A model generated the notes under the pieces. The model was not told the origin of the DNA. It worked only from the letters and a program-made list of their open reading frames with translations, and made no database searches. A DNA stretch of 29,011 bases, taken from the IMG/VR virus record IMGVR_UViG_3300030389_002546, positions 1-29,011 of that record. One strand, 5' to 3'. The position numbers and the translations under genes were made by a program. Origin of the DNA: a virus (Duplodnaviria > Caudoviricetes). Shown here piece by piece: positions 3,179-25,933 of the stretch. Within the stretch, counting starts at the first letter, position 1; each line of letters starts with the position of its first letter.

Positions 3179-3190
3179 CTTAAATAGAAA
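3179..3190 (-). promoter_or_regulatory. Candidate late-promoter motif TTTCTATTTAAG
   Basis: Identical 12-mer at 15453-15464; both copies lie 3 nt upstream of an ATG. This copy follows a terminator. Confidence 0.5.
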
Positions 3191-3214
3191 ATTAGTTAAT
3201 TTATTTTGACTAAT

Positions 3215-3242
3215 AAAAAAAAAGAGGGCATATAGCCCTCTC
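3215..3242 (-). terminator. Rho-independent terminator after the tail tube gene
   Basis: Minus strand reads GAGGGC-TATAT-GCCCTC followed by a T9 run. Confidence 0.85.
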
Positions 3243-3262
3243 CTTTATCATGAAAACATAGT

Positions 3263-3814
3263 TTAGTCTGCATCAACTGTTACAGTAAATGCAGTATTGT
3301 CAAATGGTGCATCAGTATAACCTGCAACTTCTTTGCATGGCTCTGGCTCTTGACCCTCAAAAGTCAAATCATAACCATTCATATCTCCTAGCGCCACTCC
3401 ACTAGCACTAGTTCCTGCAGATAACTCCATACCATTATGTTCGCCACAACACCATATTCTAGTAAGACCAGTTGGTTTTGTGCTGTTTGTTTCTACAAAT
3501 ATTATTAATCTATTTTGTGCTAATAATTTTATTTCGTTTCTATCATCAGCAGTCATATTGTGCAATTTGATATTTATAGATGGAGTGTAGAAAACTGTAC
3601 CATTCTCAGAACTAGGATTTATTGTTTCTGTGAAACTACCTGTTCCTCTTTTTAATTTGTACTTTCTCAATGATGCAGTTAAGTCTATATCGCTAATAAA
3701 ACCACCTGCACTTGCTAATGTTGCTTTATCGTACTCAATAAAATAAACCGCTTTTATTCCACCGACAGCATCTCTACAGTCTAAACCACGTCCTTTTGTT
3801 AAATCACATGCCAT
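3263..3814 (-). CDS. Putative major tail (tube) protein
   Basis: Start re-called at ATG 3814 (MACDLTKGRGLDCRDAVGGIKAVYF). ENGTVFY and GDMNGYDLTFEGQE motifs are typical of the gene following the capsid gene in Bacteroidota siphophages. Confidence 0.65.
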   Translation of the reverse strand: MACDLTKGRGLDCRDAVGGIKAVYFIEYDKATLASAGGFISDIDLTASLRKYKLKRGTGSFTETINPSSENGTVFYTPSINIKLHNMTADDRNEIKLLAQNRLIIFVETNSTKPTGLTRIWCCGEHNGMELSAGTSASGVALGDMNGYDLTFEGQEPEPCKEVAGYTDAPFDNTAFTVTVDAD

Positions 3815-3836
3815 ATTATATAGTTTTAGGCAATTA

Positions 3837-3859
3837 GATGAGGGTATAAAACCCCCATC
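3837..3859 (-). promoter_or_regulatory. Intergenic hairpin between capsid and tail tube genes
   Basis: Minus strand GATGGGGGT-TTTAT-ACCCTCATC (9-bp stem with one G-U pair); no U-tract. Confidence 0.55.
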
Positions 3860-3874
3860 CTTTTGCATTAATTA

Positions 3875-4817: not shown

Positions 4818-5468
4818 TTATTTATTTAAGTTAAAGAAAAATCTTTCTTTGCTACTCATAGCATTGTAAGGTTTTCCTTTAGGTACTTGTGTCTCGCTAA
4901 ATTTAGAAACTCCTACAGGTGTTGTAGCAGGTTCTTTACTTAACTCAGTTATTTGACTTTGCAATTCTGCTTTTTCTGTTTCTAATTGCTCTGTCATTTC
5001 TTTTAGGTCAGTATTTTCTCCTTTCATTTCTTTAAGTTCTGCATCTAGTCTGTCTAAATCTGACTTTACTTCTGCTAATAACTCCTTAATAACTGCTCCT
5101 ATTTCGTTTATAAGACCCTCTTTGTCAAATTCTACATTTTCTGACATTTCTTCTTTGTCTTTATAACCCATTTCATCTTCTTCTTCCTCTTCCTCTAACT
5201 CATCTTCTTCTTTTTCTCCAACTTCTGCTACGATACCTTCTTCTTCTACTGTAAAAGAAACTCCATCTTCTGTTTCATAGTTTCCTACAGGTAAAGGCAT
5301 TGTAGTGCCATCTTCTGCAAGTATCATTATAGATATACCTGCTTCTAATTCCTCTGCTTCAGATACAACTATTGTACCATCCACAAGTTTTGCTTGCATA
5401 GCTAAGTTTAGAGTTTCTACTTCTTCCTCTAAACCTAGTGCTACTCTTATTTGTTTTTTAATATCCAT
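4818..5468 (-). CDS. Putative capsid scaffolding protein
   Basis: Very acidic with a coiled-coil C-half; lies between protease and capsid genes; PLPVGNYETEDG motif. Confidence 0.65.
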   Translation of the reverse strand: MDIKKQIRVALGLEEEVETLNLAMQAKLVDGTIVVSEAEELEAGISIMILAEDGTTMPLPVGNYETEDGVSFTVEEEGIVAEVGEKEEDELEEEEEEDEMGYKDKEEMSENVEFDKEGLINEIGAVIKELLAEVKSDLDRLDAELKEMKGENTDLKEMTEQLETEKAELQSQITELSKEPATTPVGVSKFSETQVPKGKPYNAMSSKERFFFNLNK

Positions 5469-5483
5469 GGTATTTTTTTTATT

Positions 5484-5494
5484 TTAAATAGAAT
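5484..5494 (-). promoter_or_regulatory. Candidate late-promoter motif variant ATTCTATTTAA upstream of scaffold/capsid genes
   Basis: Shares TTCTATTTAA with 3180-3189 and 15454-15463; AAAC lies about 13 nt upstream, as at the 15453 site. Confidence 0.4.
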
Positions 5495-6134
5495 CTTTCT
5501 TTTTTTGTTTCATTTTCATACTATCTTTTTCGCTTTCCTCTATAATATCTCGTAAAGCAACAAGAATATCTTTTTTGTTTATAACAGGTTTAGACATTTT
5601 TTCCATTTTATCAACGAAATATCCCTCTATGCTTAAACCTTTTAACTCGCCACTCTTTATCCTACTCCATAACTCTTTATTTTCTATTTTCATTTTCACA
5701 AACCATGTTCCATCTGGTAAGTCAAAACCATATAGTTTAGATTTGTCCATATCGCCCTCTTTTATCCAACTTTCAACTGTAAGTACACCTGCTACTCTAT
5801 CTTCGTGTTGGTATGTTGCTTTATGATGATTATTGTATTTAAGATACAATTCAGACGCTTTCCTAACAGTTTCCTTACTAAAGTATACATAATAGTCGCT
5901 ATCTGTATTTGGATTGTATCGTAGTATTTGTTTATTTGGTATTAGTGCAGGACTAATGAGTATCTGTTTATCATCATCTGTTTTAGCAAAAGTTAAATTA
6001 TTCTTTTCTTTGCCAAAGAATATAAAGTCCACTTCAATTGCAGGACTTGTTACTAAACTTATAGCATCTATTGATAATTCTTCATTTTCTTCGCTAATTA
6101 CTAATTCTGTTATTTTGGTATATTTCTTTTTCAT
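5484..6134 (-). CDS. Prohead protease, XkdF-like serine peptidase
   Basis: Motifs AISLVTSPAIE, LISPALIPNKQI, FSKETVRKA, VESWI, LPDGTWFVKMKI and GELKGLSIEG. Confidence 0.8.
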   Translation of the reverse strand: MKKKYTKITELVISEENEELSIDAISLVTSPAIEVDFIFFGKEKNNLTFAKTDDDKQILISPALIPNKQILRYNPNTDSDYYVYFSKETVRKASELYLKYNNHHKATYQHEDRVAGVLTVESWIKEGDMDKSKLYGFDLPDGTWFVKMKIENKELWSRIKSGELKGLSIEGYFVDKMEKMSKPVINKKDILVALRDIIEESEKDSMKMKQKKKDSI

Positions 6135-14690: not shown

Positions 14691-14928
14691 TATTTACACT
14701 TTTTAGTTCATTTAAATCTGCTTCATACGTTAGCCATGTTAGACAAACATATAAACTTAGATTTGTTATATTATTTAGATTTACTATTTCTCCTTTTGTT
14801 AAATTATACATTATACCAAACCAACCCCATTTTTTAGAAAATTCTTCTCCTGTTGTTATATTGTCATCTTGCTCTGTTCTAGAGAATACCAAGGCAAATT
14901 GCTCAATAGTTCTCTTACGAAAGTCCAA
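14680..14928 (-). CDS. Tail assembly chaperone, -1 frameshift extension (GT-like)
   Basis: Has only a TTG start lying inside a T9 run; is in the -1 frame of 14856..15449; KKWGWF motif. Confidence 0.65.
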   Translation of the reverse strand: MDFRKRTIEQFALVFSRTEQDDNITTGEEFSKKWGWFGIMYNLTKGEIVNLNNITNLSLYVCLTWLTYEADLNELKSVNNGK

Positions 14929-15449
14929 AAAAAAAGCAATGCGTTTTGCACTTGCTCTGCTTTCATTTGTAGAAATTTATTTGCTCTCATCCCTGTTGTT
15001 GCACTATCATATGGTGCAATAGTATAATAAGATTTGTCTTTGTCAATTATTGGTCTAAATAATATAGCCATAATCTTATGTAAATTCTTATTTATATCTA
15101 TTTTTATATATTGCTCCAAATCTGCGTATTCTCCTAACGTTATTTCTTCTAAGTCTGGTATAAAACCATATTCATCATTATTTATTTTTACTATTTTTCT
15201 AAGATAAGTGGATTGTTTTGCTTGCCTATCGCTACATTTCTTAAATATATCTACAACATGCGCCAAACTTAGTTTGTCTAGTATTTTTGTAGGAATATCC
15301 GCCATCATATTTATTAATTCTTGCGTTTGCTCTATCTCTGTGCCATCTTCTTTTTCCAATAACCTCATCCATTTTTCTAGTGTTACATCACTCCATGACT
15401 TTATAGTAAACTCTTTTACTTCTTCATTTTCTAAAATCTTTATTGTCAT
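14856..15449 (-). CDS. Tail assembly chaperone (G-like)
   Basis: YGFIPDLEEITLGEYADLE...IMAILFRPI; slippery CTT TTT TTT TGG near the 3' end. Confidence 0.6.
   Translation of the reverse strand: MTIKILENEEVKEFTIKSWSDVTLEKWMRLLEKEDGTEIEQTQELINMMADIPTKILDKLSLAHVVDIFKKCSDRQAKQSTYLRKIVKINNDEYGFIPDLEEITLGEYADLEQYIKIDINKNLHKIMAILFRPIIDKDKSYYTIAPYDSATTGMRANKFLQMKAEQVQNALLFFWTFVRELLSNLPWYSLEQSKMTI
14927..14935 (-). other. Putative programmed -1 ribosomal frameshift site (T TTT TTT)
   Basis: T9 run on the minus strand exactly where the two overlapping ORFs meet. Confidence 0.65.
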
Positions 15450-15452
15450 AAT

Positions 15453-15464
15453 CTTAAATAGAAA
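15453..15464 (-). promoter_or_regulatory. Candidate late-promoter motif TTTCTATTTAAG at the head of the tail operon
   Basis: Identical to 3179-3190 with the same 3-nt spacing to ATG. Confidence 0.5.
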
Positions 15465-15488
15465 TTTTTTACTTTTAGTTTATCTTTT

Positions 15489-15496
15489 TATATTTG
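15489..15496 (+). promoter_or_regulatory. Bacteroidota -7 promoter element TATATTTG facing the intergenic hairpin
   Basis: Matches TAnnTTTG and is identical to the elements at 25291-25298 (-) and 25412-25419 (+). The -33 match is weak. Confidence 0.55.
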
Positions 15497-15499
15497 CAG

Positions 15500-15589
15500 A
15501 GTTTCGTAATGAAATGTTTTGTTTGTTGGCAGGAATAGACTGGAGACTTAATTAATTTTCTAAGTACAGGTTTGTTCCTGCTTTCTTAT
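15500..15589 (+). ncRNA. Candidate small regulatory RNA (~85 nt)
   Basis: Upstream promoter element, U-rich 5' segment, long hairpin 15529-15581 whose G-U pairs form only on the plus strand, then TTTCTTAT. Confidence 0.45.
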
Positions 15590-16896
15590 TGTATATAGTA
15601 TCTACCATAGCTAGTATCTATTTCATAATACATTCTCATAGCCATAGCATCTGCATAGTCAGGAGAACGACCAAGTATAGCTTTTATCGTTTCTTTTGGT
15701 ACAATTTGTAATTTATTGTCCTTATCTTGGTCTTTGCTTCTTATCTGTTCTAACTCCTCTATCATTGTTTGTTTTATATTTACATCATTCATACTTATAC
15801 CTATCTGTGCTGTATTTATCATACTTGCTAACTTGTAGTAACATTGCGTTTTAAGATTTTGGTAATTTTCTTTTTTTATTGGTCTAGAATTGTTTACAAA
15901 ACCTCTACATCTTAGATAATCTTTAACTCCACCACCAACGCCATCCTCATCTACAATTATGTTAGATAATTTAACTTGCTCTTGTTGTTGTATTTGTTTA
16001 ATTTGCTCTACAACATCATTTATAGCGCTTTTAAGCAACGTTCTTACTTTTGTAATATGTAACCCTTTCCATAACATTATAATTGTTTTATCGTTACCAA
16101 ATCGTGCTACATCACAGGTTATATATTTTTCTCCATCTATGCCTTGTTGGTCAAATAGTCTAACTATTGCATCATAGTTGCATAAACTATCGTCTGACAC
16201 ATCATATTCCCAATTACCAAATAGTAACCTTTGTTTACTTAGTTCGTCAAGTGTTTCTAGTTGTGTTTTATAGAATTTACTTATATATTCATTGTCATCT
16301 ACTAAGCTTTGTATAAATCTTCTATGTTTTTTTATAGTACCATCTTTTGCAGGTTTATAATATTGTGTATAAACCCAATTTTTAGCAGGATTGCAAGTCA
16401 TAAGTAACTTAGGTATGATATTGTACTTATCTAACTTGTACCTTAATCTACTTGCTACAATATTTTTTGCCTTTTCTGTAATTTGGTTTGCCTCATCTAT
16501 GAATGCACCTGTTATCTCTAACGAACCTAAGCTATCAAAGTTTCTGTCTGATGGATATAAGAACAAATCTTTTAGTATTATCTCTGAACCATTATAAAAC
16601 TTTATAATATTTGTACTTGCATTAAAATTATAATGTTTGTCTGCTATAATATTCCAATGTTGGCAAACTTCAAAGAATGTATTTAACGTGGTTTTTTTAA
16701 GTGCATCTAACTTACTACGCCCCATTAAATATCTTGTACCTGCATATTTAAGACATACTATAATTATCCATGCACAACCAACCCATGACTTACCACCACC
16801 TGCTGCACCACCAAATAGTATCTCTGTTGTTTGTTTGTCAAATAAGTATTCTATTGCCTGTTCCTGCGTATAAGTAAATTTAGCATCAATAGTCAA
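15586..16896 (-). CDS. terL: Terminase large subunit
   Basis: Walker A GGAAGGGKS, Walker B FIDE, coupling motif TCNP, nuclease motifs CDVARFGND and SPDYADA. Confidence 0.95.
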   Translation of the reverse strand: MTIDAKFTYTQEQAIEYLFDKQTTEILFGGAAGGGKSWVGCAWIIIVCLKYAGTRYLMGRSKLDALKKTTLNTFFEVCQHWNIIADKHYNFNASTNIIKFYNGSEIILKDLFLYPSDRNFDSLGSLEITGAFIDEANQITEKAKNIVASRLRYKLDKYNIIPKLLMTCNPAKNWVYTQYYKPAKDGTIKKHRRFIQSLVDDNEYISKFYKTQLETLDELSKQRLLFGNWEYDVSDDSLCNYDAIVRLFDQQGIDGEKYITCDVARFGNDKTIIMLWKGLHITKVRTLLKSAINDVVEQIKQIQQQEQVKLSNIIVDEDGVGGGVKDYLRCRGFVNNSRPIKKENYQNLKTQCYYKLASMINTAQIGISMNDVNIKQTMIEELEQIRSKDQDKDNKLQIVPKETIKAILGRSPDYADAMAMRMYYEIDTSYGRYYIQ

Positions 16897-19453: not shown

Positions 19454-19799
19454 ATAATTTTTTCATTGCATTATACATTTGATTTAAGCAACTAACACAA
19501 TTTGTATTGGTTTTAAAGTTAGTCTTATATATTTTATTGTATAACTCCACAAATTTTTTTTTAGTTTCTACATCAGGGGCTTTACCTGTTTTTATTTTTT
19601 GCCATATGCAAAGTATTTCTTCTTTTAAATTTTCTTCCTTGTTTTTATAAGGAAACATTTCGTTAAGTTTTTTTTGCCTTTCATCACAACCACAATCTTC
19701 TTTACCAACTGCATTAGCTATTTTTTTTGCTAACTTATCTATCTTGGTTGCTGATGTTATTTTTTTTATTGTATCTCCTAAACCTTTACTCTTGGTCAT
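19431..19799 (-). CDS. Conserved phage protein with CGC and CxxC motifs
   Basis: SKGLGDTIKKIT...DCGCDERQKKLN...TNCVSC; follows the sigma gene. Confidence 0.65.
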   Translation of the reverse strand: MTKSKGLGDTIKKITSATKIDKLAKKIANAVGKEDCGCDERQKKLNEMFPYKNKEENLKEEILCIWQKIKTGKAPDVETKKKFVELYNKIYKTNFKTNTNCVSCLNQMYNAMKKLYDKYYEK

Positions 19800-20325
19800 C
19801 TAGTTCTTCTTTTATTTCCTGTCTTATCTTATTTATTGTATTATATATACTATTTCTACTAATACCTGTTTTTTCTGCTAAACTATCCAAAGTGTTGTTT
19901 TCATAGTAATATAATTTAAATATTTCTTTATCATACCAATATTTAGTATCTAATATTTCATCTATTTTTTCTAAGTATTGCCATTTTATATCAGGTGCCT
20001 CATTCGGTATATTTTTATAAGGTTTCACACCTGCAGTAGCAGAGTAGTTCCAACTAATATTTTCATAATATTTTTTGTATTTATAATAGTATGGACTTTT
20101 TGTGCTATGAACAGAACGCCTCATAACCACTCCTGCATACCTTAACAAACCATCTTTACCATCTTTATCATAAATCTTTTGTAATGTTGTTTGGTTCATT
20201 TGCAACATATATACTAATGTTTCTTGTACGATTTCCTGTATTTCATTATAATCCTTAATTAGTCCATATGCCATATATACCATTGTTTGCCTAAGATTAG
20301 CAATTATATTATGCAATTCATTCAT
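19786..20325 (-). CDS. ECF-like sigma-70 family factor (putative late sigma)
   Basis: Region 2-like IQEIVQET and region 4 HTH DKEIFKLYY...TLDSLAEKTGISRNSIYNTINKIR; 179 aa. Confidence 0.7.
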   Translation of the reverse strand: MNELHNIIANLRQTMVYMAYGLIKDYNEIQEIVQETLVYMLQMNQTTLQKIYDKDGKDGLLRYAGVVMRRSVHSTKSPYYYKYKKYYENISWNYSATAGVKPYKNIPNEAPDIKWQYLEKIDEILDTKYWYDKEIFKLYYYENNTLDSLAEKTGISRNSIYNTINKIRQEIKEELDDQE

Positions 20326-24303: not shown

Positions 24304-24331
24304 TTTTTTTGTTTTTGTTTGTTAATATGTG

Positions 24332-25056: not shown

Positions 25057-25260
25057 TTAATAAATAGGTTGTGGATAATATCCTAGCACTTCAATTTCAG
25101 CAGGAAAAAATGTATTTTTTCTCCTTGCACGAGCTTTAGCAGTAATGATTGCACTACGATTTTTACCCCAAGTAGGTTTAGAAAGTTCAGAAAATATACC
25201 TTGAGAAACATATAAATCAAATGTATGTTTATCCATTTTGTATTTTTGTGTTTTGTTCAT
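25057..25260 (-). CDS. First early protein (67 aa)
   Basis: Immediately downstream of promoter 25291-25323. Confidence 0.6.
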   Translation of the reverse strand: MNKTQKYKMDKHTFDLYVSQGIFSELSKPTWGKNRSAIITAKARARRKNTFFPAEIEVLGYYPQPIY

Positions 25261-25290
25261 TGTTTTGTTTTTTGTTTGTTAATTATTGTA

Positions 25291-25323
25291 CAAATATAAA
25301 CATATTCCATATATCCTGCAACT
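25291..25323 (-). promoter_or_regulatory. Bacteroidota sigma-70 early promoter (TTG-N20-TATATTTG)
   Basis: Matches the -33/-7 consensus and heads the early operon. Confidence 0.7.
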
Positions 25324-25411
25324 ATAAACAACTTTCTGTTTAGTATTTATTAACAGATATCTTGTTAGCAAGTATATACAAAGTACATTTTTTTCTTTAC
25401 AGAACTACTTA

Positions 25412-25419
25412 TATATTTG
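25412..25419 (+). promoter_or_regulatory. Bacteroidota -7 element for the plus-strand gene
   Basis: TATATTTG 25 nt upstream of ATG 25445. Confidence 0.65.
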
Positions 25420-25444
25420 ACCAATAATTACAAAACATTACATT

Positions 25445-25933
25445 ATGAATATATTTTATTTACACAAAAATCCTATCATTGCACCATCATTCTTATACAA
25501 CAAACACGTGGTCAAAATGATATTAGAAACTGCACAGATGCTTTGTACTGCACATCATCATTACGCAGATAAACACAATTATGACAAATCATATATACCT
25601 TACAAACCTGCTTATATTAATCATCCTAGTACAAAATGGGCTAGGCATAATGCAAAAACTTACAAGTGGTTATATGATTATTTCGTATCTATCAATATAG
25701 AGTACTACTCTAGATATGGCAAAATACATACAACTTATAAAAAATGCAGGAAAGCACTTGCAGATATTCCTGTTGGTATTCCTAGTGGAAAATTTATACA
25801 ACCACCACAATGTATGCCAGATGAGTACAAAACAGACTGCAGTTTAGATGCTTATTGGAACTATTATATTGGTGCCAAACAGCATATTGCTAACAAAAAC
25901 GAAAATATTATCACAGAGGCATTAGTAAATTAA
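25445..25933 (+). CDS. Pyrimidine dimer DNA glycosylase / endonuclease V-like protein
   Basis: MNIFYL...KHVVKMILETAQMLCTAH, YKPAYINHPSTKWAR, EYYSRYGKIH and PPQCMPDEY...AYWNYY; has its own promoter. Confidence 0.75.
   Translation: MNIFYLHKNPIIAPSFLYNKHVVKMILETAQMLCTAHHHYADKHNYDKSYIPYKPAYINHPSTKWARHNAKTYKWLYDYFVSINIEYYSRYGKIHTTYKKCRKALADIPVGIPSGKFIQPPQCMPDEYKTDCSLDAYWNYYIGAKQHIANKNENIITEALVN

Follow-up and report, generated by a model that had tools for sequence, protein, structure and literature searches.

According to the part of a survey drawn on here (PMC12197685), most of the RNAs by which phages regulate themselves are antisense to one gene, and most come from temperate phages. Lambda OOP and aQ, P22 sar and PAK_P4 as15, as described there, are antisense RNAs (asRNAs) that tune gene timing in their own phage, each tied to one phage gene. 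In the same account, lambda PreS and VP882 VpdS are small RNAs (sRNAs) that act away from their own locus during development, both bound to Hfq, PreS targeting host dnaN and VpdS mainly competing for Hfq. The subject here is a predicted sRNA gene located behind the terminase large subunit gene (terL) of an uncultured marine phage (IMG/VR record IMGVR_UViG_3300030389_002546, 96% complete), the 29,011 bases of which were analysed over their whole length and are referred to as the window. Like the asRNAs, this RNA would tune the timing of its own phage's genes, but its predicted targets are distant, imperfectly matched and more than one; like PreS and VpdS it would act away from its own locus, but on early mRNAs of its own phage. 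A literature search of partial coverage found no prior report of it.

In the excerpts of its description used here (PMC7366714), GibS of Bacteroides thetaiotaomicron is a trans-encoded sRNA that represses through a long single-stranded 5' seed lying across start codons, and an obvious Hfq or ProQ homologue is described as lacking. The predicted unit shares with GibS the long unstructured 5' seed over start codons and the imperfect complementarity to distant loci and, as judged from sequence only, is likewise a stand-alone gene with its own promoter and terminator and no open reading frame (ORF). GibS, however, is chromosomal, has a conserved seed and metabolic targets, and has been shown experimentally, whereas the present case is phage-encoded and sequence-based, with a variable seed that tracks the early leaders of its own genome. 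The C4 antisense RNA of phages P1 and P7, in the passages drawn on (PMC5320573), resembles the unit in self-targeting occlusion of the ribosome-binding site (RBS), and in that seed and target vary together between related phages. C4 functions in lysogeny; it has three stem-loops, pairs through its loops and is released by RNase P cleavage of a longer transcript. The predicted unit differs in being driven by its own promoter and in having a single hairpin with a free 5' seed, and its targets are 8-10 kb away; a search of the window and of 11 loci against Rfam at E ≤ 1 returned neither C4 nor any other family. The promoter directly upstream argues against C4-like processing by RNase P. Nor did Pfam detect integrase or repressor families among 20 window proteins and the 127 proteins of three complete relatives with terminal repeats, some proteins in these sets being unannotated. 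The P4 CI RNA is comparable to C4. In type I toxin-antitoxin systems the antitoxin RNA co-occurs with one toxin gene; the present unit, unlike these, has no fixed gene partner, as described below.

The predicted unit and its conservation

The minus strand holds nearly all genes of the window, and the unit lies on the opposite strand (Table 1). A TAnnTTTG box occupies positions -12 to -5 in the portion of the source used (PMC9723704), so that the predicted starts are G15501 for the sRNA and A25424 for the mRNA of a glycosylase-like gene, its best match in the window. The box, the U-rich segment (15505-15529) and the hairpin (15529-15581) placed by a first-pass annotation all hold on re-reading, G15529 being common to the last two, and the predicted structure of the whole RNA is a single hairpin. 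As that annotation had supposed from its G-U pairs, the hairpin folds better on the plus strand (-23.2 kcal/mol, z -3.8) than on the minus strand (-14.1 kcal/mol, z -2.8). The four bases before the start have a G+C fraction of 0.60 at sRNA promoters versus 0.30 at early mRNA promoters. A G+C-rich stretch at this place is linked to stringent control.

Table 1. Predicted features of the sRNA unit, its targets and related genes in the window.
Feature	Coordinates	Strand	Basis or remark
Late-promoter-like motif AAAC...TTCTATT, back to back with the sRNA promoter	15457..15481	-	Function inferred; retained in relatives whether or not they have the cassette
-7 box TAnnTTTG (Bacteroidota sigma-A) of the sRNA gene, TATATTTG	15489..15496	+	Direct reading; identically placed box in 76 distinct relatives
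Predicted sRNA, ~87 nt	15501..15587	+	Start predicted by the -12..-5 rule; median 60 nt in relatives (range 45-128 nt)
U-rich seed, mostly unpaired	15501..15528	+	Accessibility and cofold prediction
Long hairpin, predicted intrinsic terminator stem	15529..15581	+	z -3.8; stem covariation in relatives
U-rich tail overlapping the terL stop codon	15582..15588	+	TTTCTT at 15582-15587
Glycosylase-like gene, own TATATTTG copy as -7 box	25412..25419	+	Direct reading
Predicted leader and AUG of glycosylase-like gene, best target in the window	25424..25447	+	-19.9 kcal/mol; rank 1 of 51 start regions
162-aa pyrimidine-dimer glycosylase/DenV-like protein (activity predicted)	25445..25933	+	PF03013 E 5e-6; phrog_624; atlas 0.96
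Divergent early promoter (25291-25298) and leader of first leftward early gene, 11-nt tag 25270-25280; secondary target	25261..25298	-	-14.1 kcal/mol
Leader of 65-aa early gene, second 11-nt tag copy 24313-24323	24304..24330	-	-13.7 kcal/mol
terL (flank)	15586..16896	-	PF03237
197-aa conserved protein (flank)	14856..15449	-	No Pfam match; phrog_32199, unknown function
Sigma-factor-like protein, candidate driver of late promoters	19786..20325	-	phrog_1740 E 2e-7; weak Sigma70_r4

Three terminase searches with overlapping sets (the best 80 of 146, the best 80 of 316 and the best 80 of 255 loci) were collapsed to distinct sequences, of which 76 have the unit and 18 are clean absences, while 22 fell outside the anchor pattern and 1 was too short. 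The promoter-seed-hairpin layout of the first-pass annotation is thus kept: box, U-rich seed, hairpin and U tail, opposite to the terL strand, occur in 76 distinct versions behind terL in related phages of ~30 kb. A G, the predicted start, follows the box at +5 or +6 in 59 of these, the better fold is on the sRNA strand in 74, and in 72, T accounts for 5 or more of the 8 bases that precede the final one. None contains a conserved ORF. In 27 alignable clade-B relatives, 99.7% of the stem cells are paired and 4 pairs are changed on both sides, a covariation reached by none of 500 shuffles, although kinship inflates such counts. On this evidence the sRNA gene is real and conserved, and it is probably transcribed.

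Box, start G and hairpin are gained or lost together as a single block. The unit is whole in all five relatives with an extra gene between it and terL, so its hairpin does not depend on adjacency to the terL stop; the same observation ruled out a replacement of the cassette by a protein gene, which had been considered for some relatives. The inserted genes (L416-L420) encode different proteins of 78-103 aa and are antisense, each with its own host-type promoter. Three of the five leaders form predicted duplexes of -15.8 to -17.3 kcal/mol with the neighbouring seed, and the site looks like a hotspot for accessory genes. A second promoter-hairpin-U-tail unit, antisense and near or upstream of the small terminase gene, was seen in G057, G063 and G064 (L373:7795, L386:2783, L388:2250), two of these units starting with a common short motif.

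Pairing with early-gene start regions

The 5' part of the seed fits the leader and AUG of the glycosylase-like gene, while the 3' part is complementary to an 11-nt tag shared by two leftward early leaders. The former gene, PF03013-like, is the sole credible plus-strand gene, in agreement with the first-pass annotation, which had singled it out together with its leader. The pairing given there is confirmed by direct reading: the last 18 positions comprise 16 Watson-Crick pairs, one G-U pair and one A.A mismatch, and past a 2-nt bulge there are 7 further pairs (6 Watson-Crick, 1 G-U). Its caution that the latter may partly precede the transcript was justified, as 25421-25423 lie outside the predicted mRNA and the duplex is then reduced to the value in Table 1. 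Energies were calculated with ViennaRNA (duplexfold and cofold). The full seed duplex with 25411-25450 has -25.9 kcal/mol, the top non-self value among 5796 scanned windows (runner-up -19.6) and the best among 47 start regions (runner-up -15.1). A shuffled background had been named as the test of this duplex, and none of 13 shuffles reached -25.9 over the whole window (mean -20.0, sd 1.0). Trimmed to the predicted leader, the duplex has about -20.0 kcal/mol versus -15.5 for the next start region in the window; over 51 start regions the trimmed value of -19.6 was reached by 10 of 1000 shuffled seeds, which average -14 kcal/mol against start regions. Structure prediction leaves most of the seed and most of the leader unpaired. 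The first-pass observation is exact, and the match exceeds chance.

The glycosylase-like gene itself occurs in 2 of 50 related records, both from near-identical phages, and in 1 of 17 near-complete records; a metagenome scan returned 13 loci, 4 of them near-identical, and the glycosylase leader is in none of the 13. Since the cassette is widespread, the gene is not its conserved target, which by these predictions is the promoter-proximal early genes, whichever protein is encoded there. The first gene behind a host-type early promoter ranks 1 or 2 among start regions in 11 of 19 cassette-bearing genomes, and these first early genes encode different proteins. In the window, the 11-nt complement of the seed's 3' part has exactly two other occurrences, each 20 nt before an early AUG, and in the near-identical G007, with a slightly different seed, four early leaders pair at -17.7 to -19.8 kcal/mol. 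The paired positions centre on -9 to +4 around the AUG, the same AUG-near zone that, in the part of the study available (PMC6847099), holds Flavobacterium initiation determinants including A at -3. In relatives, unrestricted duplex scans of the sequence up to 10 kb from terL did not single out a clear target; a signal emerged only when the comparison covered start regions across whole genomes. The early region of the window opens with a divergent pair of host-type promoters (25260-25445), the first genes behind which are swapped freely among relatives, and in G008 and G038 a whole early operon is on the opposite strand.

The predicted pairing is specific to the genome, and the covariation of seed and target anticipated for related phages is supported by three comparisons. 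A first matrix of cognate versus foreign pairs (16 genomes, 9 seed groups) favoured the own target (p 0.0005), the targets having been picked after matches were seen. For a second set, the target rule was written before 21 new genomes were fetched, of which 15 had the unit and 13 a rule-defined target (G059 and G062 had none); this set is not fully blind, as the 4-kb limit was fixed after a list with some matches visible by eye. In these 13 genomes (10 groups) the own target was best, with p 3e-4 when scored by alignment and 5e-5 when scored by energy, and it ranked first in 8. The own-genome excess was weaker for all early start regions (p 0.03) and absent for middle (p 0.83) and late genes (p 0.64). 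Finally, 13 of 15 disjoint pairs of genomes with different seeds, drawn from 31 genomes, favour the own target (sign test p 0.004), although two of the 15 are not true neighbours (terL of G001-G003 is incomplete). G059, its seed mis-set, entered the middle and late controls only and was left out of the pair test, and the early region is missing from G018 and G024.

A U-rich tail-gene 3' untranslated region (3'UTR), used as control in 33 genomes, gave no cognate excess (p 0.36). What had been taken for a relocated cassette in G011, pairing with its own early gene at -23.3 kcal/mol, is this 3'UTR, which is present with or without the cassette. In the window it lies at 3215-3262 (minus strand), behind the gene for a 201-aa protein (3263-3868), and consists of a U-rich stretch before a terminator, with an anti-ATGAAAAC core. 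The stretch is longer and conserved in many relatives, while G030, G031 (L188/L190) and G062 have a longer, possibly structured sequence instead of the usual short terminator.

Weighing of alternative explanations

The explanation that we consider fairly likely is that a conserved, trans-acting, one-to-many sRNA blocks translation of the phage's own early leaders, and so damps early proteins. Of the first-pass proposal that a phage sRNA blocks translation in trans, the trans-acting layout and the covariation are retained, while the one-to-one link to the glycosylase-like gene is given up in view of its rarity; among the functions offered, a timing switch fits best. Several observations weigh against such a role. 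The U-rich tail noted in the first pass is present but short and weak, and a generic terminator scanner does not pick up the hairpin. Seed and leader are of low complexity, and the two leftward leaders are individually within background. In a large clade the seeds are near-constant and match the phages' own first leaders poorly (G001-G005, G016, G022 and G070 have them at ranks 4-21 of 31), and both failing disjoint pairs come from this clade; G053, G058 and G036 likewise fail to match their own target. Own-genome duplexes tend to be of modest energy (-11 to -19 kcal/mol; many lie between -11 and -15), and the preponderance of G-U-type over A-C-type mismatches is slight (25 vs 14 in cognate, 582 vs 587 in foreign pairs). 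The 18 distinct relatives without the unit have the late-promoter-like motif ending on the terL stop, and a search of 8 such genomes for a promoter-led copy elsewhere found nothing convincing; the unit is therefore dispensable at this site.

A dedicated repressor role of the antitoxin type, directed at the glycosylase-like gene and also suggested in the first pass, would account for this leader being by far the best target in the window and conserved in near-identical phages. Of the 50 related records, however, 48 lack the gene, the identity of the first early genes changes from genome to genome, the leader comes second by energy in G007, where three leftward early leaders pair equally, and the protein belongs to a DNA-glycosylase family and is not a recognised toxin. 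As gene and cassette rarely co-occur, this explanation fails, and we regard it as very improbable. The hairpin could alternatively be a terminator only, the U-rich stretch matching A-rich Bacteroidota leaders by composition, as any U-rich stretch would. Many hairpins of relatives are flanked by A and U runs and could end terL transcripts too, and the tail-gene terminator is preceded by a similar U-rich stretch. But the window hairpin has no U run on the terL strand, the components of the unit come and go as a block, and the hairpin is kept when apart from terL, while composition leaves own-genome specificity and early-gene restriction unexplained. Because of that specificity and the flat controls this possibility, too, fails and appears improbable.

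The match might also act on the terL strand, as the ribosome-binding site of a mini-ORF, or as DNA, in the form of an operator common to early promoters. The reverse strand does resemble a strong leader, and CAT (sense ATG) occurs in 33 of 76 seeds; yet 43 lack it, the sense strand of the window has no ATG there, and promoter and U tail point the opposite way. A mini-ORF fails because the ATGs that do occur are spread over all three frames (11/13/9), which leaves no conserved peptide, and an operator is at odds with the failure to find repressor families in the three complete relatives. Either is very improbable. Lastly, the sRNA may be real but serve mainly in host shut-off or superinfection exclusion, aimed at host mRNAs or at the early mRNAs of relatives that compete with the phage, with the self-match secondary. 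Clade-B seeds pair better with a leader of the relative G002 (-14 to -19 kcal/mol) than with their own, and seeds resemble the anti-consensus of strong Flavobacterium start regions; outside clade B, however, the seed tracks its own genome, and we hold this to be rather improbable, if slightly less so than a dedicated antitoxin, though it may apply to the clade with near-constant seeds.

Phage setting and proposed mode of action

The terL product of the window is nearest to those of Flavobacterium phage 11b (52% identity) and Cellulophaga phage phi10:1 (51%), and the host is presumably a member of the Flavobacteriia for this reason. In phage 11b the gap between terL and the portal gene is merely 34 nt. 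A host and prophage search of genome contigs returned one distant fragment. The label of chaperone, given in the first pass to the flanking gene at 14856..15449, is not supported by the matches in Table 1. A Tet/JBP-type 2OG-Fe(II) oxygenase gene is located just upstream of the small terminase gene in G026 (L185:8235-9035; PF12851, E 1.6e-8, slightly under the cut-off), and a glycosyltransferase gene occupies the same place in the window, which may represent a DNA-modification slot. The late-promoter-like motif of the cassette recurs, as AAAC/AAAT...TTCTATT, before the late, structural genes starting at 5468 and 3175 (regions 5491-5515 and 3182-3206, minus strand), and is a candidate promoter for the sigma-like protein.

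In the proposed mechanism of early-gene damping, a host sigma-A promoter behind the terminase gene would make the ~87-nt RNA, the free 5' end of which would mask the A-rich leader and AUG of the first early mRNAs, in the window best that of the glycosylase-like gene. Flavobacterium ribosomes, in the part of the study used (PMC6847099), rely on an A-rich leader and the AUG instead of a Shine-Dalgarno sequence. Because the sRNA and its targets share a promoter class, the simplest logic would be a delayed negative feed-forward, in which the sRNA, protected by its hairpin, would build up and lower the output of the first early proteins once their initial pulse is over. Later, the overlapping late promoter and terL read-through could turn the sRNA off; mutual exclusion of the two promoters is plausible, since they lie back to back and the phage encodes a sigma-like protein. 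A bolder extension, which we think unlikely though less so than the alternatives above, is an RNA-only growth-or-wait switch in phages without repressor or integrase: an optional cassette that has a G+C-rich start region and overlaps the first late promoter would sense host physiology and silence the whole early regulon (carrier state or superinfection exclusion), and would perhaps be one branch of a class of post-terminase sRNAs across Bacteroidota phages.

For the question of how small, apparently lytic phages turn down their early genes without a repressor, a swappable cassette of 45-130 nt, the seed of which co-evolves with the early leaders of its own genome, would be a directly testable mechanism. 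The dozens of natural seed-target pairs are compensatory controls that need no construction, in a phylum where translation starts without Shine-Dalgarno pairing, and the unit could serve as a compact translation-silencing part for Flavobacteria.
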